From Anaerolineales bacterium (lineage in GTDB: Bacteria; Chloroflexota; Anaerolineae; Anaerolineales; UBA6663): DNA of 32,077 nt. The stretch is from contig JBQTJD010000625.1 of NCBI GenBank assembly GCA_052387475.1, forward strand, positions 1 to 32,077, given 5' to 3'. A program made the position numbers and the translations under genes. Each line of letters starts with the position of its first letter. The stretch's first letter is position 1. Below the pieces are notes generated by a model. It was not told where the DNA came from, made no database searches, and saw only the letters and a program-made list of their open reading frames with translations. Positions 3 through 6,223 of the stretch are shown here, in pieces.

Positions 3-335
3 GGCTATCACTTTCGGCGGCAACAAGTGATCGAGGGTTTCATCGCCGATTTTTACTGCTATGCCGCCGGGCTGGTCGTGGAAATAGACGGCAAAATTCA
101 CCAGACCCAAACCCACTATGACGACGCGCGCGACCAAGTGCTTATTGCGTGTGGCCTGCGTGTAATACGCATTCCCAACGCCCTCGTGCGTCAAAACCTG
201 CAGGCCGTATTAACCCTCATCCTCAGCGCTTGCCAAGAGCCTGACTCCCCTTCCCTGTCTGGAATTGGACTGGGCGATATACAAGAAGCCAACTCCCCTT
301 CCCTTTCAGGGAAGGGGCCGGGGGTTAGGTCATGA
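3..335 (+). CDS. DUF559 / Vsr-like endonuclease domain protein (5' partial)
   Basis: The frame is open from the window start: GYHFRRQQVIEGFIADFYC...LVVEIDGKIH...DDARDQVLIACGLRVIRI is the DUF559 signature. The C-terminal tail is derived from repeats (SPSLSGxGxG twice). Confidence 0.85.
   Translation, partial: GYHFRRQQVIEGFIADFYCYAAGLVVEIDGKIHQTQTHYDDARDQVLIACGLRVIRIPNALVRQNLQAVLTLILSACQEPDSPSLSGIGLGDIQEANSPSLSGKGPGVRS
244..329. repeat. Two copies of a short palindromic REP-like element (degenerate copy from 244; intact copy 293-329)
   Basis: actccccttccct occurs at 244 and 292. The second copy forms a perfect hairpin, ccccttccct(295-304)-ttc-agggaagggg(308-317), followed by ccgggggttagg. Confidence 0.65.
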
Positions 336-814
336 AGCCCGGCAGTAAATACGAGCCGCTTTACCAGCATTTGCGGCGCAGCGGCAAAGACCAACTCACC
401 CTCACCTTTGCCGAGATTGAGCGACTCGTTAGCGGCAGTCTGCCAGACTCGGCCTCTGAGCGCGGCTGGTGGAGCAATCGCGCCAACGCCCTCCAAGCCA
501 GCGCCTGGATGGAGGCAGGCTATCACGTTGAAGAACTGGATATGACCAAGAAGCGCGTCACGTTTCGGAAACCCAAAACGACTTACTCCGTTCAACGCGA
601 CGACAGTGGCCTCGTACTCTGGGACACTGAACTCATCAAAGGTTTGCGCCAGCACATGGGCCTGACCCAAGCGCAATTTGCCGAAGTGCTCGGCGTGCGT
701 CAGCAGACCGTGAGCGAGTGGGAAGTGGGGCTGTATGCGCCCACCCGCGCCACTGCCAAACATCTTGCGTTGGTGGCCGAACGAGCCCAGTTCCCGTATC
801 ATGCAGAGACCTGA
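332..814 (+). CDS. DUF7662-like domain fused to an XRE-family helix-turn-helix; putative transcriptional regulator
   Basis: N-terminus SKYEPL..HL...LTFAEIE..V...LP.SA...WWSN...QASAW.EAG. C-terminus IKGLRQHMGLTQAQFAEVLGVRQQTVSEWEVG (HTH_3). ATGA overlap with the DUF559 stop codon. Confidence 0.85.
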   Translation: MKPGSKYEPLYQHLRRSGKDQLTLTFAEIERLVSGSLPDSASERGWWSNRANALQASAWMEAGYHVEELDMTKKRVTFRKPKTTYSVQRDDSGLVLWDTELIKGLRQHMGLTQAQFAEVLGVRQQTVSEWEVGLYAPTRATAKHLALVAERAQFPYHAET

Positions 815-836
815 TCGAACCGCACAAAACTGACTG

Positions 837-864
837 TTGACAAGAAGCCGCTACCGTGTATACT
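837..864 (+). promoter_or_regulatory. sigma70-type promoter
   Basis: TTGACA (837-842), 16-nt spacer, TATACT (859-864), upstream of ATG 898. Confidence 0.7.
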
Positions 865-894
865 GGAAATGACAAATTACACGGTAGCGGCTTC
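844..894. promoter_or_regulatory. Perfect 17-bp inverted repeat with 17-nt spacer (candidate operator or RNA hairpin)
   Basis: gaagccgctaccgtgta (844-860) and tacacggtagcggcttc (878-894) are exact reverse complements. Confidence 0.8.
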
Positions 895-897
895 ACG

Positions 898-1272
898 ATG
901 GATACTCCAAAAGCACTCTTCATTTCTCCCGACGGCAACCTCTATCCTGATTATTTGGTTTGCTCCGGCAAACTGCTCATTGATACGGGCGGCCAGCCTT
1001 GCCCTTTTGCACAGGAGGGGCGTTTGCCTGAGCCGCAACCGCTGGACCCAAATGCTCCAACCTATAGCCTCGACAAAGGCAGACCTGGCGACTTATGCCC
1101 GCCTTGCGCCAAGCAGCAACTCACAAGCCTTGGTCACTGGGATGGGCACCGAGGCCAACACTTCCCCGATGACTTGAAACCGCTCAGGCTGTTCAAATGC
1201 AAACAATGGCTATGGCTCGTAGTCATGGGTTTGTATCAAGACCATCCCTCGCTCATCCAAGAAAATCAGTAA
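898..1272 (+). CDS. Hypothetical Cys/His-rich protein (124 aa), possibly metal-binding
   Basis: ATG 898 is preferred over GTG 856, which lies inside the promoter. Five Cys (LVCSG, PCPF, CPPC, FKCK) and a GHWDGHRGQH stretch. Confidence 0.7.
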   Translation: MDTPKALFISPDGNLYPDYLVCSGKLLIDTGGQPCPFAQEGRLPEPQPLDPNAPTYSLDKGRPGDLCPPCAKQQLTSLGHWDGHRGQHFPDDLKPLRLFKCKQWLWLVVMGLYQDHPSLIQENQ

Positions 1273-1318: not shown

Positions 1319-1388
1319 GTGACTCCTCACGCCGCGCTGCGCGAATACTTCGGCTACCCTGCCTTTCGACCCGGGCAGGAGGCTGCGC
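1319..1388 (+). repeat. Duplicated 5' end of recQ (first 23 codons; second copy 2240-2309), opening a 46-codon ORF 1319-1459
   Basis: 64 of 70 nt are identical and both copies encode [23 protein letters not shown]. The ORF ends at TGA 1457-1459, overlapping the antitoxin ATG. TATCAT at 1307-1312 is a possible -10 for a leaderless transcript. Confidence 0.9.
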
Positions 1389-1419
1389 CGAAGGACACCC
1401 TCGCCTTGATCCTCTCGCG

Positions 1420-1455: not shown

Positions 1456-1722
1456 ATGACAGATCTGACCCTTCAACTCCCCGATTGGCTGGCAAAAGAG
1501 CTTTCACAGGCCAACCAGGAATACCTGGCAAAAGTCGTGGAGCGCGGTTTGCGGGCCGTGAAAATCGAAGAAGCCCTGGCCGCTTACGCGCGCGGCGGCA
1601 TAACCTTGGGCGCGGCCGCTCGTTTGGCGGAAGTCGCGGAAAGTGAGCTGGCTCGACACGCCTACGCGAGCGGGCTGGAGCCACGCTTCAGCACTAACAC
1701 GTTGAATGAAGAGCTGGCCTGA
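1456..1722 (+). CDS. UPF0175 family antitoxin
   Basis: 88 aa; EEALAAYARGGITLGAAARLAEV HTH-like motif; stop overlaps the toxin start by 1 nt (TGATG). Confidence 0.85.
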   Translation: MTDLTLQLPDWLAKELSQANQEYLAKVVERGLRAVKIEEALAAYARGGITLGAAARLAEVAESELARHAYASGLEPRFSTNTLNEELA

Positions 1723-2234
1723 TGCCGCAGGTCCTCATCGATTCTGGCCCTCTGATCGCACTCGCTAAACTTAATCGCCTTGAGGTTTTGCACAAACTGT
1801 GGGGGACGGTTCAGATGACGAGCGAGGTGTGGCAAGAAGCTGTCGAGGTCGGTCAGGCCCGTGGGGCGCCGGATGCCCTGACAATTTTCCTCTTCTGGCA
1901 ACAGTATCGGTTCCCAGTCGTCTCCGTTTCTGCGGAAGTTCAAGCGCGCTACCGCCCGGCACTTCAAATAGATCCAGGGGAACATAGCACGCTGGCCATC
2001 GCGCAGACTTTGAGCGATGGGCTCGTGCTGCTCGATGACGAAGACGCCCGCAGCGAAGCACGCCGCCTGGCTATTCCCGTTCGCGGCACCCTGGGCGTGC
2101 TTGTGGAAGGCTATCGCCAGCAGCACCTCACTCTGAACGAGACTGAACTACTCATCAAAGAGATTGCCGCACGACCGGATATTTGGATCAGTTCCGCCCT
2201 TTGCCAGCAAGTATTGAATGTCTTGCGGAAGTAA
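1722..2234 (+). CDS. DUF3368 / PIN-domain (VapC-like) toxin
   Basis: VLIDSGPLIALAK, IDPGE and LLDDEDAR acidic PIN motifs; C-terminal VRGTLGVL...WISSALCQQVL typical of DUF3368. Confidence 0.9.
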   Translation: MPQVLIDSGPLIALAKLNRLEVLHKLWGTVQMTSEVWQEAVEVGQARGAPDALTIFLFWQQYRFPVVSVSAEVQARYRPALQIDPGEHSTLAIAQTLSDGLVLLDDEDARSEARRLAIPVRGTLGVLVEGYRQQHLTLNETELLIKEIAARPDIWISSALCQQVLNVLRK

Positions 2235-2239
2235 ACATC

Positions 2240-4726
2240 GTGACCCCGCACGCCGCGCTGCGCGAATACTTCGGCTACCCCGCCTTCCGACCTGGGCAGG
2301 AGGCCGCGCTGGCGCACGTGCTGGCCGGGCGCGATACGCTCGTCGTCATGCCCACCGGCTCGGGCAAATCCATCATCTACCAACTCGCCGGGCTGCTCAG
2401 CCCCAACGCCACGCTCGTTATCTCGCCGCTTGTGGCGCTGATGAAGGATCAAATCGACTCGCTCGAACGGCGTGGGCTGCCCGCCTCGTACATCAACTCC
2501 ACCTTGCCCGGCCCGGAGCAATCGCGCCGGCTGCGGGCGTTTGCCGAAGGGCACATCAAGATTCTGCTCATCGCGCCGGAGCGGTTGCGCAGCCGCGCGT
2601 TTCGCGGCACGCTGGCTCGCGTGCCGTTGAGCGTGCTGGCGATTGACGAGGCGCACTGCCTCTCGCAGTGGGGCCACGACTTCCGCCCCGACTACTTGCA
2701 AATCGCCGAGGTGCGGCGCGAGTTCAATCCCCAAACAACGCTCGCCCTCACCGCCACGGCCACCCCGCGCGTGCAGGACGACATCGTGCGCATGCTGGGC
2801 CTGGCACGCGCCGAGCGCATCATCACCGGCTTCAATCGCCCCAACCTCACGTTGGAGGTGCTCTCGGCCAGAAACGACAATACCAAACTTCAACTGGTGC
2901 GCGAGTTCTTGAGCGATGCCGAGGGTGCGTCCGCCGAAGGCGGGGGGATCATTTACGTGGGCAGGCGTAAGGATGCAGAAGAAGTCGCAGCGTATGTGGC
3001 GCAGATGGTTGGGCTGGAGGCTCGCGCTTACCACGCCGGGATGGACACCGGTGCGCGCGCGGAGACACAGGATTTGTTTTTGGCCGGCGACCTGCCCATC
3101 ATCGTGGCGACCAATGCCTTCGGCATGGGCATTGACCGGCCCGATGTGCGCTGGGTGCTGCATTACACCATGCCCGGCACGCTCGAAGCGTATTATCAAG
3201 AAGCGGGCCGCGCCGGGCGCGATGGGTTGCCCGCGCGCTGCGTGTTACTTTATTCCCCGCGCGATACATCGCTGCACGAGTTCTTCATCGAAAACGATTC
3301 GCCGAGCGAGGACGAGTTGCGCTCGGTGTACGGCTTTCTGCGGGGCGATGCACCGGCGGCCAACGGGGGCGTCACCGAGACCGGCTTCGCGCTCGAAGAA
3401 CTGCAACGCCTCACACAACTCAACAACACCAAGGTCCGCGTCGCGCTCGAACAACTCGAAGTCGCCAACGCCGTACGCCGCGCGCCCGATCAAGCATACG
3501 GCTATCTTCAATTGCAAGTTGGGCCGTTGGATGAGAAGGCGTTGAAAGCGGTAGCCGCGCAGGTGCAACAACGCCGCCGCCACAAGCGCGCGCAACTGGG
3601 GGTGATGGTCGATTACGCCGAGACCAATATCTGTCGCCGCCGCACCATCCTCGACCACTTCGGCGATACCGGCCCGGCGGATGCGCCGGTGTGCTGTGAC
3701 AACTGTTTGAGCGCGGCTGAGGCCGTGGACGCGGGCCGCGAGTACGCGGGCCGCGACGAAACGCGACCCGCCAAAACTCAACCCGAGCGCGCCGCCCTGA
3801 TCGTGCTCGACACGATTGCACGGCTGAAGTGGGAGATCGGCAAATCCAAACTGGCGCAGGTGCTCAAAGGCTCCACTACCCCGGAGATGGCGAGCTATCG
3901 CGACAACCGCAATTTCGGCAAGTTCGCGGACTTGCCGCTCACTGAGATTGAAACGCTCATCGCGCAACTGCTTGACTCGGGGTACGTGAAGCAAGTGGGC
4001 AGCGACCGCCCCACCCTGCGCCTCAGCCCGCGCGGCGAGAGCGCGTTGAAGACGCGCACCGCGATCAAGGTTGATCTGCGGCCCGTGCGGGCGGGAGCAA
4101 CCCAAAGGGAAAAGGCAAAACGCGACGCCGGTGGGACGGTAGCCCTCACCGGCCAACTGCTGGCGCGCGGTCTCTCGCCCGAACAAATCGCCGCCGAGCG
4201 CGGGGTGACGCTCAGCACCGTGTATTCGCATCTGGCGCAGCTCATCGCCGCTGGGCGCGTGGACATCAACCGCGTCGTGCCAGCCAGTGTGCAGAAACAC
4301 ATCCACGCCGCCATCGAGCGTGTCGGGCCGGTCGGGCAACTCGCGCCGCTCAAAGCGCTAGTCCCGGACAACATTGACTACAACCAGATTCGGTGCGTGG
4401 TGGAGGCGTGGAAGCTAAAACACGGCGCTGCTCGCAGTGCGGCCTTTACACAGGATTATTCAGCGGCGCCGCGCCTCGTCCGCGCGACGGAGGCTGCGAC
4501 GAACACCAATGACTTGTTCGAACGGCTGCGTGTATGGCGAATGGAGAAAGCGCGCTCACTCAATCTGCCGCCGTTCGCCATCTTTTCGGATGAAACGTTG
4601 CGCGGGATCGTGACCCAGCGCCCGCGCGCGCCCGTCGATCTGCTGAACGTGCGCGGCATCGGGCGTGTGAAACTGGAACAGTACGGGGCCGAGGTGCTGG
4701 CGGTTTTGAACGACCGGCGGTCATAG
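2240..4726 (+). CDS. recQ: ATP-dependent DNA helicase RecQ family (helicase, Zn/RQC, HTH_40, HRDC)
   Basis: [68 protein letters not shown]...CCDNC. C-terminal HRDC: LFERLRVWR...[11 protein letters not shown]...[14 protein letters not shown] 2240 taken as start. Confidence 0.95.
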
Positions 4727-4777: not shown

Positions 4778-6223
4778 TCATTTTCCGGGCGCGTTCGGTG
4801 GCGCCGTTGCCACCCCGTCCGGCGCAAGGGTGCCGGTCGGATTCGCATTCACCGTCGGCGAGGGGGTGTTCGGAGGCTGGAGCGTCTCGGTTGCGGTGGG
4901 AGACGGCGTGCGGCTGGGCGTGGCCGTAGGCCGGGGTGTCCGCGTGTGCGTGACCGTGGGGCGCGGCGTGTCCGTCTCTGTTGGCGACGGCGTGGCGGAA
5001 GGGGTAGCCGTGAGGGACGCGGTTGCTGTAGAGGTTGCCGTTGGACGCGGCGTGCGCGTATGGGTGGTTGTGGGTCGCGGCGTCTCCGTCACCGAGGGCG
5101 TCAGCGTAGGCGACGGAGTAGGCGTGGCCGTCGCGGTGGGGGTTTCGGTCGGCGTGTCGGTCGGCGTCGGTGTGCGTGTCGGAGTGTCAGTCGGCGTATC
5201 GGTCGGCGTTGGCGTGCGCGTTGGTGTGTCTGTCGGCGTCGCGGTTGCGGTCGGTGTCGCGGTGGCCGTGGCCGTCGCGGTCGGTGTGGCAGTATTCGTT
5301 GCCGTGTCGGTCGGCGTTGGTGTACGCGTTGGCGTGTCCGTCGGCGTCGCGGTTGCGGTCGGTGTGAGTGTAGGCAGCCGAGTCGCGGTGGCCGTGGCAG
5401 TTGGCGTCGGGGGGCTGATGATGGGTGTGGGCACGACTTCGAGCATGACGGCGGCCGGCAACTGCGCCAGAACTGTGACGCTTTCTTTGGCGCTGACGGC
5501 GAGAGCGCGCTCGAGGATGGGTTGGGCCGACGCTTCAGCGCCGGCGTCGCGCAACTTTGTCAGAGCCTCAACCCCGGTCGCCATACTTTGCTGAACTTGC
5601 TGCGCCAGTTGGATGCCCAGCCGTAGATCGCGCTGTGTTACAGCGGGAAGTTGCGCAGCGGTGACCTCCGTCTGCGCCTGGAGCGCCTCCAAAGCGTCAG
5701 GGATTTCGGCGTAACGTTCCAGTTCGGCCAGCGCGACGACCTCACGCATGCGGGTTTGAGTGAACTCTGCATGTAACTCAGCGCGGCGTGTCGGGCTGAG
5801 CGTAGTAGCCAATTGCACGCGTTCGGCGGTGGTTTTCACGGTATACATCCCATCGCCGGGCAGCGCGTTGCGGGTGATGCTAACCATCGCATACGTGCTG
5901 CCAGCGCTCACCAGCACGACCAGCATGGCGGCGACCAATGCCAGACGGAAGGGCGTGTGCGCCACGGCGCTACGCCACTGGTCGAGGCGGTTGAGCAGCG
6001 CCGCGCCTCGGGCGCGCGTGAACCTGCCCGTGACGGGGATAGTCTGTGCCCCTCGTACTCGGGCCTGAATGCGGCGCAACAAATTCACCTGTGCCCGGCA
6101 AACTGCGCACGTCTGCACGTGCGTCGCAACGCGTTGCGCGGCCTCAGCCTCGAGTTGGCCCAACGCGTAGGCGATGAGCTGTTCCGGCGCTACCACATGG
6201 TTTAGTTCTGACACGATTGCCAA
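4778..6223 (-). CDS. Anti-sigma-like membrane protein: zf-HC2 (HxxxCxxC), TM helix, DUF5667, Pro/Thr-rich tail
   Basis: LIAYALGQL...[11 protein letters not shown]; hydrophobic [13 protein letters not shown]; [19 protein letters not shown] (DUF5667-like); long TPTATAT tail. Start codon uncertain (TTG 6223 or GTG 6214). Confidence 0.8.
4880..5420 (-). repeat. Coding low-complexity Pro/Thr repeats
   Basis: [11 protein letters not shown] three times and [11 protein letters not shown] twice. Near-identical DNA blocks begin at 5202 and 5310. Confidence 0.85.

Follow-up and report, generated by a model that had tools for sequence, protein, structure and literature searches.

A DUF7662–XRE regulator gene paired with a gene for a small cysteine-rich protein: a candidate mobile cassette at the end of methylase operons

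Sequence comparisons indicate that ORF1 and ORF2, two genes at the start of a 32,077-nt stretch of DNA from an Anaerolineales bacterium (the whole stretch analyzed, here called the window), are a conserved, mobile pair. Our preferred reading, which we hold tentatively, is that they form an autonomous, horizontally spread cassette in which ORF1, an antitoxin-like or C-protein-like repressor, gates ORF2, a toxin-like or abortive-defense protein that would presumably be harmful to the cell when overproduced. The relevant features of the window are:

3..335, + strand: 3' part of a DUF559 gene, truncated by the contig start (context only)
332..814, + strand: ORF1, regulator of 160 aa with DUF7662 and an XRE-type HTH
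350..571, + strand: DUF7662 domain of ORF1 (aa 7–80; Pfam PF24698)
635..769, + strand: HTH_3 domain of ORF1 (aa 102–146; Pfam PF01381, XRE family)
837..864, + strand: sigma-70-type promoter of ORF2, with TTGACA (837–842), a 16-nt spacer, and TATACT (859–864); 11 of 12 matches
844..860, + strand: inverted repeat, 5' arm; located in the promoter between −35 and −10 and before the predicted start site
878..894, + strand: 3' arm of the inverted repeat, over the ribosome-binding region and ending 3 nt before the ATG of ORF2
898..1272, + strand: ORF2, soluble, Cys-rich protein of 124 aa from a family without annotation
1319..1405, + strand: remnant copy of the 5' end of recQ (87 nt, 84% identical to 2240–2326)
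1456..2234, + strand: toxin–antitoxin cassette of a UPF0175-like gene and a DUF3368/PIN gene (neighbor, outside the pair)

The regulator and its small partner

The fusion of an XRE-type HTH with a DUF7662-like domain that the initial annotation ascribed to ORF1 is borne out by Pfam, where ORF1 belongs to both DUF7662 (PF24698; 56.3 bits, E = 2.8e-15, gathering cut-off of 26 bits) and HTH_3 (42.8 bits, E = 5.6e-11, cut-off of 23 bits); a search of the window's genome for the DUF7662 family also recovers ORF1. The N-terminal part (aa 1–95) is basic (pI 9.3). The HTH fold is confirmed in the predicted model of aa 92–160, which matches XRE-type structures at Z scores of 6–9.8, with the controller protein C.Kpn2I (4yba_B; Z 9.8, rmsd 2.0, 69 residues aligned) at the top, followed by HigA2 (Z 9.5), Aca10 (Z 8.5), and MqsA (Z 7.8). 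All matches in the fold searches were drawn by the HTH part only, and the best NCBIfam row for ORF1 is the MqsA family, with a score under its cut-off. On these grounds, ORF1 is read here as a putative antitoxin-like or C-protein-like repressor.

A literature search for “DUF7662” or “PF24698” found no papers. The initial annotation mentioned similar HTH fusions in cyanobacteria, and fusions of the ORF1 kind are indeed present there. The partner domains of DUF7662 in other proteins are a FitA-like RHH or DUF4268, the latter in 4 of the 12 other DUF7662 proteins sampled. DUF4268 is nuclease-like, in agreement with the earlier statement that DUF7662-like domains occur fused to nucleases.

ORF2 is mildly acidic (pI 5.7) and contains five Cys. 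Its true start is the ATG at 898, because the N-termini of the homologs align there, which rules out the GTG at 856. Conserved positions in the family include C22, C35, C67-P-P-C70, H80, and C101, a pattern suggesting that ORF2 is probably a metal-binding Cys4 protein. No family was found for ORF2, which the initial annotation described as an unknown protein: the Pfam scan returned no family at E ≤ 0.1 and a single row at E ≤ 1 (zf_Tbcl_Rhp7, E = 0.2), and searches of PADLOC, NCBIfam, and PHROGs gave nothing usable. The predicted model is confident (pLDDT 94.6), but no solved fold was matched: Foldseek found no usable match in the PDB (best E = 2.1), in a wide VIA-align search, only 5 of 48,161 chains reached Z ≥ 2 (highest Z 2.2), and the ORF2 profile retrieved no PDB sequence at E ≤ 10. 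Nothing usable was found in BFVD (best E = 1.3), and the best value in the ESM Atlas (0.79, fungal DUF7729 clusters) was under the lead level of 0.9. A search for longer proteins of the ORF2 type gave one of 265 aa and no others; the longer representatives P0123, P0125, P0136, P0159, and P0208 contain no Pfam domain. In another representative (P0138, 173 aa), DUF7662 is joined to the C-terminal part of ORF2, and this protein may be a deletion fusion. ORF2 thus represents a well-conserved family that is annotated in none of the libraries searched and whose confident model matches no solved structure; if it is a toxin or an effector, it would add a new fold to the toxin–antitoxin and defense repertoire.

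A promoter inside an inverted repeat

The near-consensus promoter of ORF2, which the initial annotation had placed in a long perfect inverted repeat, is the single site with 11 of 12 matches in positions 1–2600 (0.7 expected), and its position predicts a start site near 871. The arms of the repeat comprise 17 nt each, are 100% complementary, and are separated by 17 nt, a configuration equalled by none of 60 shuffles. An intrinsic terminator at this site was rejected, as no run of T follows the repeat and the terminator scan found none there. An equivalent promoter is present in 42 of 44 related intergenic regions. A crude test for the inverted repeat recovered a perfect or one-mismatch form in only 17 of 43 regions.

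The 5' arm contains the box TACCGTGTA (852–860) and the 3' arm the inverted box TACACGGTA (878–886); 14 of the 44 intergenic regions contain TACNNNGTA (1.1 expected). Among the 29 matches of TAC[CT]GTGTA in 727 kb, 17 sit 34 nt before the ATG of a methylase gene and 9 at ORF2 promoters, and in one genome the two kinds of site have 15 of 18 bases in common. The presence of a TAC-N3-GTA box at both promoters suggests that ORF1 represses both the methylase gene and ORF2, and the overlap of the candidate boxes with −10 and +1 would allow ORF1 to act as a repressor only, with no evident site for activation. The earlier idea that the fusion protein represses ORF2 via the repeat is therefore compatible with the box shared by two promoters, but the repeat is not simply an operator, since its 3' arm covers the translation start of ORF2.

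Although the arm sequences vary between clades, the 3' arm always lies over the ORF2 start region. This suggests that read-through transcripts are locked at the RNA level. In the window, RNA 815–920 is predicted to fold at −37.4 kcal/mol (z −6.3; none of 200 shuffles as good), compared with −4.5 kcal/mol for the RNA that begins at ORF2's own start site, and the pairing of the promoter segment with the ORF2 start region amounts to −35.8 kcal/mol (z −8.3). Because the positions of the arms differ by clade, a single MAFFT alignment of all intergenic regions gave no usable consensus structure, and each locus was therefore tested against shuffles. In 26 of 42 loci, no more than 10 of 200 shuffles do as well as the pairing between promoter segment and ORF2 start, whereas the signal is weak or absent in the other 16; the region from −15 to +3 is predicted to be less open in the read-through RNA than in the own-start RNA in 37 of the 42.

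It is quite unlikely that the repeat has only one of these roles, be it that of a DNA operator consisting of two inverted ORF1 boxes or, conversely, that of an RNA element with ORF1 acting elsewhere. The first is favored by the box TACCGTGTA, which is conserved as a sequence and not just as a complement and also stands singly at methylase promoters, and the second by arms that differ by clade but always place the 3' arm over the ORF2 start region; the evidence for each opposes the exclusive form of the other. Both roles can coexist in the window, since the arms contain the boxes.

In the cassette that we prefer, ORF1 would bind the boxes and repress ORF2; in full systems, the operon of ORF1 would be repressed as well. 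Read-through RNA from ORF1 would form the 17-bp hairpin and leave ORF2 untranslatable, and the only translatable RNAs would be those from ORF2's own promoter, which begin within the loop of the hairpin, so that ORF2 would be made only when ORF1 is low. Since ORF1 is translationally coupled to the upstream methylase operon or to an inserted toxin–antitoxin pair in most relatives, the cassette may report whether that operon is still expressed. The predicted design, a promoter whose own sequence masks the ribosome site of the next gene on read-through RNA, would make a simple insulator.

Genomic context, spread, and decay of the pair

The conserved pairing expected from the initial annotation was recovered in the neighborhood survey: among 73 genome loci with an ORF2 relative, ORF1 directly precedes it in 55. 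Both genes are intact in 43 of these, ORF2 is broken in 10, and 2 have junction deletions; many loci are kin (syntenic Nostocales), so that the counts overstate independence. In the phylum sample of 401 genomes, ORF2 is present in two and a full-length ORF1 in three; both genes are adjacent in the window's genome (G000) and in G108.

Beyond the initial annotation, the usual place of the pair proved to be the 3' terminus of an operon encoding a MAD2/MAD5-like methyltransferase and specificity subunit. Methylase and/or specificity genes precede the pair in 37 of the 43 intact-pair loci. The methylase resembles MAD2 along the entire protein (NF047738, E = 4e-83; 280 bits against a cut-off of 720), and its single chain joins an N-terminal, nuclease-type HSDR_N_2 domain to the methyltransferase domain; the specificity subunit resembles MAD5, also over the full length (NF047740, E = 6e-39; 134 bits against a cut-off of 400). 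In 28 of 42 loci, the upstream gene ends within the first codons of ORF1, start and stop overlapping, in most relatives as an ATGA shared with this operon or with an inserted toxin–antitoxin pair. The Nostocales island, located between an ndhD-like gene and ndhF, consists only of methylase, specificity subunit, ORF1, and ORF2, with or without small toxin–antitoxin-type genes. ORF2 is the sole unexplained gene of this compact, recurrent set.

In the window, the pair has no methylase or specificity genes beside it; the contig starts 331 nt upstream of ORF1. No close methylase relative was found in G000 (best identity 33%), and none was detected at E ≤ 1e-60 among the 401 phylum genomes, including G108, whereas the same query found the methylase in five of five other genomes. 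The lack of a close methylase relative in G000 and G108 argues for an autonomy of the pair.

The neighbors named in the initial annotation (DUF559, a PIN toxin–antitoxin pair, and recQ) are present as stated. The DUF559 match (Pfam E = 1.8e-21) aligns profile positions 32–108 of 109 with aa 1–77, and the contig begins at base 1 of the window; the open frame crosses two repeat copies and stops at the TGA inside ORF1's ATGA. The DUF3368/PIN gene matches PADLOC PDC-S70 (E = 9e-27), and the recQ remnant at 1319..1405 marks the insertion of the adjoining toxin–antitoxin cassette; other genomes, too, have this kind of UPF0175/PIN cassette next to the pair. The proposal of a DNA-stress or defense setting was not supported for recQ and the other downstream neighbors, which are incidental because the downstream genes vary by locus.

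ORF2 is broken next to an intact ORF1 in 10 loci, with eight lesion patterns, whereas an intact ORF2 with promoter but without ORF1 was found at a single locus (L018). This asymmetry counts in favor of a toxin, but it is equally expected if ORF2 is dispensable and ORF1 is kept as a regulator of the methylase operon. Six loci (L018, L020, L024, L025, L038, and L044) have an intact ORF2 without an adjacent ORF1, which counts against the preferred reading. So does the promoter that ORF2 has to itself, as ORF2 would be made before ORF1 accumulates in a newly entered cell. Solitary copies occur in phage-like early-gene arrays, with Gam-like and PAPS-reductase genes (L044), with Ant (L020 and L025), and on IMG/VR contigs (L096 and L097); a tblastn search of 50,697 records of isolated phages found no copy of ORF2.

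The main rival of the preferred cassette, which we consider unlikely, is that ORF2 is a restriction-alleviation or establishment factor like phage Ral or Lar. When the operon enters a cell, the strong, unrepressed promoter would allow a burst of ORF2 that blocks cleavage or favors de novo methylation by the methylase–specificity enzyme, until ORF1, produced along with methylase and specificity subunit, shuts it off; a solitary ORF2 would help phages to evade enzymes of this kind. The operon genes ahead of most intact pairs fit this course of events, as does the HSDR_N_2 domain fused to the methyltransferase, because cutting and methylating cannot be timed by separate transcription if they reside on one chain; ORF2 would then be a self-encoded timing device for such an enzyme. 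The same holds for the default-on promoter with its candidate repressor box, for the solitary ORF2 in phage-like early-gene arrays, and for the decay of ORF2 with retention of ORF1. Restriction is also alleviated by RalR/Lar. One report describes RalR of the rac prophage as a DNase toxin (PMC4041452); on that reading, both roles could be combined in one small protein. This explanation is weakened by the intact pairs in G000 and G108, by the absence of similarity between ORF2 and the Lar family or any Pfam family (E ≤ 0.1), and by the tblastn result for isolated phages. Moreover, ORF2 is only mildly acidic and thus does not qualify as a DNA mimic like Ocr or ArdA, and a double lock against leakiness exceeds the need of a harmless factor.

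It is very unlikely that ORF2 is the missing effector, e.g., a small metal-dependent nuclease subunit, of a defense system formed by methylase, specificity subunit, ORF1, and ORF2, with ORF1 as controller. The four-gene composition of the Nostocales island, the full-length resemblance to MAD2 and MAD5, and the similarity of the ORF1 HTH fold to a restriction–modification controller protein would agree with such a system, and the nucleases of MADS are described as separate proteins (PMC13662399). On the other side are the intact pairs in genomes where no close methylase relative was found, the solitary ORF2 in phage-like arrays, and the default-on promoter, which would supply the nuclease ahead of genome methylation. 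No solved nuclease fold was matched by the model or the sequence of ORF2, although a missing match does not exclude one.

A broader version, which we regard as possible but doubtful, is a minimal four-gene, methylation-based immunity of MAD2-like methylase, MAD5-like specificity subunit, ORF1, and ORF2, with the pair as its control and effector half. ORF2 would be a Cys4 metalloprotein of unseen fold that executes the defense or times its establishment, would be held by a double lock (the repressor box in the promoter and, also embedded there, the arm that is directed against the ribosome site and silences read-through RNA), and would have been taken up by phages.

We give the lowest probability to ORF2 being a common accessory protein for redox or metal handling that is controlled by a local XRE regulator and plays no part in genome conflict. 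Four to five conserved Cys and a conserved His in a soluble, mildly acidic protein would suit such a function, but ORF2 occurs only sporadically (in 2 of the 401 phylum genomes), its identity between Chloroflexota and Cyanobacteria, two different phyla, is ~60%, it resides in islands with methylase, specificity, and toxin–antitoxin genes and in phage-like arrays, and it is often a pseudogene.

Comparison with known systems

The C proteins of restriction–modification systems (C.Kpn2I, 4yba; C.Esp1396I; C.PvuII) share with ORF1 the XRE-type HTH, for which C.Kpn2I is the best fold match. In the relatives, ORF1 also resides among the genes of a methylase operon, and two promoters have a short palindrome as a candidate operator; C.Esp1396I is reported to regulate both the R and the M gene (PMC3488213). 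However, C proteins are small and have a single domain, whereas ORF1 has an added DUF7662 part of 95 aa at its N-terminus and is located behind the methylase and specificity genes, not ahead of an R gene. Putatively under its control is a gene for a 124-aa protein of unknown fold, which is no known endonuclease; the boxes overlap −10 and +1 and imply repression only, and the copy in the window has no restriction–modification genes beside it.

Like ORF1, the antitoxins HigA2 (5j9i/5jaa; Z 9.5) and MqsA (3gn5; Z 7.8) have their XRE HTH at the C-terminus, preceded by an N-terminal part, which in these two proteins binds the toxin. ORF1 likewise directly precedes a small gene, which is the one that decays first, and, as in type II toxin–antitoxin systems, the two genes are co-oriented and adjacent and one product has a DNA-binding domain, the HTH. 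Classical pairs of this type have one shared promoter. By contrast, ORF2 has its own promoter (42 of 44 regions) rather than one shared, autoregulated promoter, is not co-translated with ORF1, and belongs to no known toxin family.

MADS of Pseudomonas aeruginosa (mad1–mad8) corresponds to the full systems in the MAD2-like methylase and MAD5-like specificity subunit upstream of the pair and also begins with a small regulator, mad1, to which the HTH of ORF1 has a faint PADLOC match (E = 0.013). The scores of methylase and specificity subunit are nevertheless far under the NCBIfam cut-offs, MADS contains no relative of ORF2, and no counterparts of mad3, mad4, or mad6–8 were found in the ndh-bounded islands examined (G401 and G404). 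In the detection model described by the authors of MADS, MAD6–8 are mandatory (bioRxiv 10.1101/2023.03.30.534895), and with MAD6, MAD7, and MAD8 absent, the islands of G401 and G404 fall outside MADS.

Lar/RalR of the rac prophage and Ral of lambda are small and phage-borne; ORF2 is found next to methylase and specificity genes and, as a solitary gene, also in phage-like arrays. Both Lar/RalR and Ral act on type I enzymes and alleviate restriction, and Lar contains Cys. They differ from ORF2 in size and predicted fold and lack sequence similarity to it; no sequence match places ORF2 in the Lar family.

A further parallel in gene arrangement differs in the parts employed. A PIN gene directly follows the gene of a DUF7662 protein with a FitA-like RHH in one locus (L088) and that of a 123-aa protein with DUF7662 only in another (L087), whereas ORF1 has an XRE HTH and its downstream gene encodes no PIN nuclease; moreover, the PIN gene of L088 overlaps its upstream gene by ATGA and lacks its own promoter. 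As in ORF1, DUF7662 of L088 is placed before the DNA-binding part, and in both loci the same N-terminal domain is encoded directly upstream of a toxin-type gene, which argues for ORF2 occupying a toxin slot. DUF7662 thereby obtains a first context, namely, as an N-terminal add-on on repressors and antitoxins.

The pair and its locus

ORF1, the gene of the DUF7662-XRE regulator, and ORF2, the small Cys-rich gene, are separated by a sigma-70-like promoter site (TTGACA, 16 nt, TATACT; 11/12 matches), which is the sole such site within the first 2.6 kb of the window and lies within an inverted repeat unequalled in any of 60 shuffles.

Features of the window locus
From the contig start (truncated), upstream of ORF1: DUF559 gene
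332..814, +: ORF1, 160 aa, with DUF7662 (aa 7-80) and HTH_3 (aa 102-146) both scoring above their Pfam thresholds
844-860 / 878-894: perfect inverted repeat, 17-nt arms, 17-nt loop
898..1272, +: ORF2, 124 aa, 5 Cys, pI 5.7, no hydrophobic segment
1456-2234: UPF0175-like + DUF3368/PIN cassette (PADLOC PDC-S70), neighbour of the pair
Also neighbouring the pair: RecQ gene

Pfam, promoter and repeat scans confirm the initial annotation, which had described a DUF7662-XRE fusion, a 124-aa gene with five Cys and a promoter in a perfect repeat; the neighbours it named (DUF559, a PIN TA pair and recQ) were recovered as DUF559, UPF0175-like + DUF3368/PIN and RecQ genes. Its overall interpretation, a repressor restraining a possibly toxic or stress-response effector, is borne out in part.

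The 5' end of recQ (~87 nt) occurs in two copies (1319-1405 and 2240-2326; 84% identical, ~91% over a core of ~69 nt) that border the UPF0175-like + PIN/DUF3368 cassette on both sides; the cassette seems, from this sequence, to have inserted at the 5' end of recQ with duplication of the target. Between the DUF559 domain and ORF1 lie two tandem copies (234-327; 72% identical) of a G+C-rich 46-nt element with an internal palindrome, across which the DUF559 frame is open; only one other near-match to its 3' part occurs in the genome (C407). An ORF of 481 aa (4778-6223, - strand) encodes a protein with an extended Pro/Thr repeat region and, at its N-terminus, a Cys motif resembling an anti-sigma zinc finger.

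Scanning a single genome for each species yielded 73 loci, all in Chloroflexota and Cyanobacteria except two MAGs labelled Pyrinomonadaceae and Acetobacteraceae. The pairing suggested by the initial annotation is conserved, with both genes intact in 43 of them.

State of the pair in the 73 loci
Both genes intact, adjacent, co-oriented, 69-170 nt between: 43
ORF2 with frameshift or truncation (8 lesion patterns) beside an intact ORF1: 10
Deletion spanning the ORF1-ORF2 junction: 2
ORF2 called intact, without ORF1: 8 (6 after inspection; no start codon in L052 and L053)
ORF2 partial, without ORF1: 8
Locus at contig edge: 2

Among 401 genomes sampled from the phylum of the window, ORF2 is present in two and full-length ORF1 in three; the genes are adjacent in G000 (the genome of the window) and G108, and in G247 ORF1 is solitary and followed by a convergent ATPase gene. 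This sporadic distribution is the pattern of an accessory element, and the pair is, as judged from these sequences, both conserved and mobile. One Anaerolineae locus (L007) carries tandem ORF1 paralogues (2816-3328 and 3382-3864; 56% and 65% identity to ORF1 of the window) between the specificity-subunit gene and ORF2.

ORF2 matches no family in Pfam, NCBIfam or PADLOC, in line with its initial description as an unknown protein. A word-indexed search found 189 relatives at E ≤ 0.01; the 120 listed of these show 58-83% identity, are all unnamed or 'hypothetical' and contain no Pfam domain. Only 93 relatives, many of them fragments, were found at E ≤ 0.001 in an exhaustive search of 1.84 billion representatives. 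F8, C22, G24, C35 and C101 are invariant in 53 diverse members, C70 is present in at least 90% of them, and the close clade also conserves C67-P-P-C70, H80 and H84. The family is real, conserved and unannotated. The proposed AlphaFold and Foldseek comparison gave a confident model (pLDDT 94.6, pTM 0.87), predicted to consist mostly of loops with few strands at the centre, and no match in the PDB (best E 2.1). VIA-align wide (best Z 2.2) and BFVD gave no match to the model either, and no PDB sequence reached E ≤ 10 against the ORF2 profile; the modelled fold has no known counterpart at present, an absent match not being proof of a new fold. In the 276-aa protein P0208, a distant ORF2-like domain is joined to a C-terminal region of ~170 aa with a DFG-like motif by eye and no Pfam match.

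Linkage to MAD2/MAD5-like genes

In 28 of 42 loci the ORF1 start codon and the stop codon of a co-oriented upstream ORF share an ATGA, and a Methylase_S protein (specificity subunit) is among the two nearest upstream ORFs in 26 of 42. Wherever the sequence extends far enough, the Methylase_S protein is preceded by an N6_Mtase protein (methylase) of ~646 aa, with an N-terminal HSDR_N_2 domain in all three copies checked. According to tblastn, the methylase and/or specificity subunit, whole or as remnants, lies ≤4 kb upstream in 37 of the 43 intact-pair loci; methylase identity is 64-88% across both phyla, a conservation equal to that of ORF1 and ORF2. The island is located between an ndhD-like gene and ndhF in two Nostocales genomes. 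Because no relationship links the downstream genes of different loci, recQ, which the initial annotation had counted among the neighbours fitting a DNA-stress or defence setting, is incidental.

Both proteins align over their full length with NCBIfam models of the defence system MADS (mad1-mad8), the methylase with MAD2 (280 bits; cut-off 720) and the specificity subunit with MAD5 (134 bits; cut-off 400). The remaining MADS genes are absent from the islands examined; the model of the MADS authors (bioRxiv 10.1101/2023.03.30.534895) demands MAD6-8.

A TA pair (UPF0175 + PIN/DUF3368, MNT + HepT, or MazF) directly precedes ORF1 in nine loci. Specificity-subunit or methylase sequence lies beyond it in L013-L017, L019 and L021; none was found within 4 kb upstream in L004 and L023. 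UPF0175 + PIN/DUF3368 cassettes occur upstream of ORF1 in L004 and L013, where the last gene ends 10-21 nt before ORF1, and in L015, L016, L019 and L021, where it ends at the ORF1 ATGA; they lie downstream of ORF2 in the window, L034, L040 and L043.

In G000 no close methylase relative was found (best 33% identity; 960 contigs, 95% complete), which in a fragmented assembly whose contig starts 331 nt before ORF1 does not prove absence from the organism. At E ≤ 1e-60, the 401 phylum genomes, among them G108, yielded no methylase relative; the same query was positive in 5/5 other genomes. The pair can, on these genomic data, stand without the methylase operon. That ORF2 serves the methylase system as an effector subunit is improbable.

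All 13 internally deleted methylase remnants (L022, L024, L026, L032, L034, L037, L040, L043, L049, L056, L068, L069, L070), which belong to syntenic kin where deletion of the methylase 5' end would also harm the neighbouring gene, retain codon 1, the first codons and the promoter with the TACTGTGTA box. Retention of this promoter would maintain ORF1 transcription.

Candidate controls of ORF2

Structurally, the HTH part of ORF1 (aa 92-160) most resembles the controller protein C.Kpn2I (Z 9.8, rmsd 2.0, 69 residues), followed by HigA2 (Z 9.5), Aca10 (8.5) and MqsA (7.8); the values lie within about one unit of each other, which places ORF1 among XRE repressors and antitoxins but in no single family. 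DUF7662 elsewhere heads a FitA-like RHH protein and a 123-aa protein, each directly followed by a PIN gene, which points to a domain of antitoxin-like proteins; a literature search for DUF7662 (PF24698) found no paper.

The 9-mer TAC[CT]GTGTA has 29 matches in the 727 kb of sequence analysed. Seventeen, from Nostocales and an Anaerolineae genome, lie exactly 34 nt before the methylase ATG, directly past its -10; nine are at ORF2 promoters, including the two arms of the window, and three at other places. Within one genome, methylase-promoter and ORF2-promoter sites have 15/18 bases in common. Of 44 intergenic regions between ORF1 and ORF2, 14 contain the general form of the box, TAC-N3-GTA (1.1 expected), and other clades show degenerate variants accompanied by changes in the recognition helix, a correlation confounded by ancestry because the groups are clades. 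We infer from these placements that ORF1 probably binds the boxes, as a candidate repressor.

A -35/-10 promoter is present in 42 of the 44 intergenic regions. The arm sequences of the intergenic repeat, whose conservation the initial annotation proposed to survey, vary between clades, yet their arrangement recurs: one arm overlaps the promoter or immediately precedes it, ahead of the predicted start site, and the second covers the ORF2 ribosome-binding region or ATG. In a Chloroflexota example the -35 region pairs with the Shine-Dalgarno region; in a Nostoc example an arm ends in the ORF2 ATG itself. The repeat lacks a downstream T run and is therefore not an intrinsic terminator.

In 26 of 42 loci, no more than 10 of 200 shuffles equal the pairing of the promoter segment with ORF2 -22..+3 (median z -2.9; in the window, -35.8 kcal/mol and z -8.3). 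Read-through RNA is predicted to be less open at -15..+3 than RNA beginning at the predicted own start in 37 of 42 loci (median openness 0.30 against 0.48; shuffling the upstream part gives 0.43). In the window, the folding energy is -37.4 kcal/mol (z -6.3) for read-through RNA and -4.5 kcal/mol (z 0.4) for RNA from the predicted own start. The promoter-borne arm would mask the ORF2 ribosome-binding region on read-through RNA, the start sites being predicted.

Possible roles of ORF2

Decay of the pair is asymmetric: ORF2 has decayed beside a retained ORF1 in the 10 loci with 8 lesion patterns, and the opposite case, ORF2 and its promoter without ORF1, is represented by a single locus (L018). 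Together with the predicted double lock of repressor box and masking arm and the presence of DUF7662 on antitoxin-like proteins, this points to an ORF2 product that is harmful when unchecked.

Solitary ORF2 genes lie within one-directional arrays of small genes carrying phage markers: in L044 Gam-like, phrog_586 and PAPS reductase, in L020 and L025 Ant, and in the IMG/VR contigs L097 and L096 PAPS reductase and a dNMP kinase, respectively. Another has DUF2786 and DUF4262 genes around it on a plasmid of Nostoc. A search of 50,697 isolated phage records gave no copy. In L044 (3938-5348) and L097 (4995-6988), ORF2 lies directly, or one gene, before a phage-type PAPS-reductase gene (phrog_424).

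The lock, the decay, DUF7662 and the phage arrays fit a toxin-like or host-directed protein, and ORF2 is perhaps, if not quite probably, a toxin-like effector. They are about equally compatible with a restriction-alleviation factor, a rather unlikely alternative that is favoured by the default-on ORF2 promoter and by the fusion of nuclease-type and methylase domains in the methyltransferase.

A harmful gene gated by a repressor in a defence island is a known kind of system. The new parts are the regulator that joins DUF7662 to an XRE HTH, a Cys4 protein with neither annotation nor known fold, the promoter-embedded arm directed against the ribosome-binding site, and the linkage with MAD2/MAD5-like genes.
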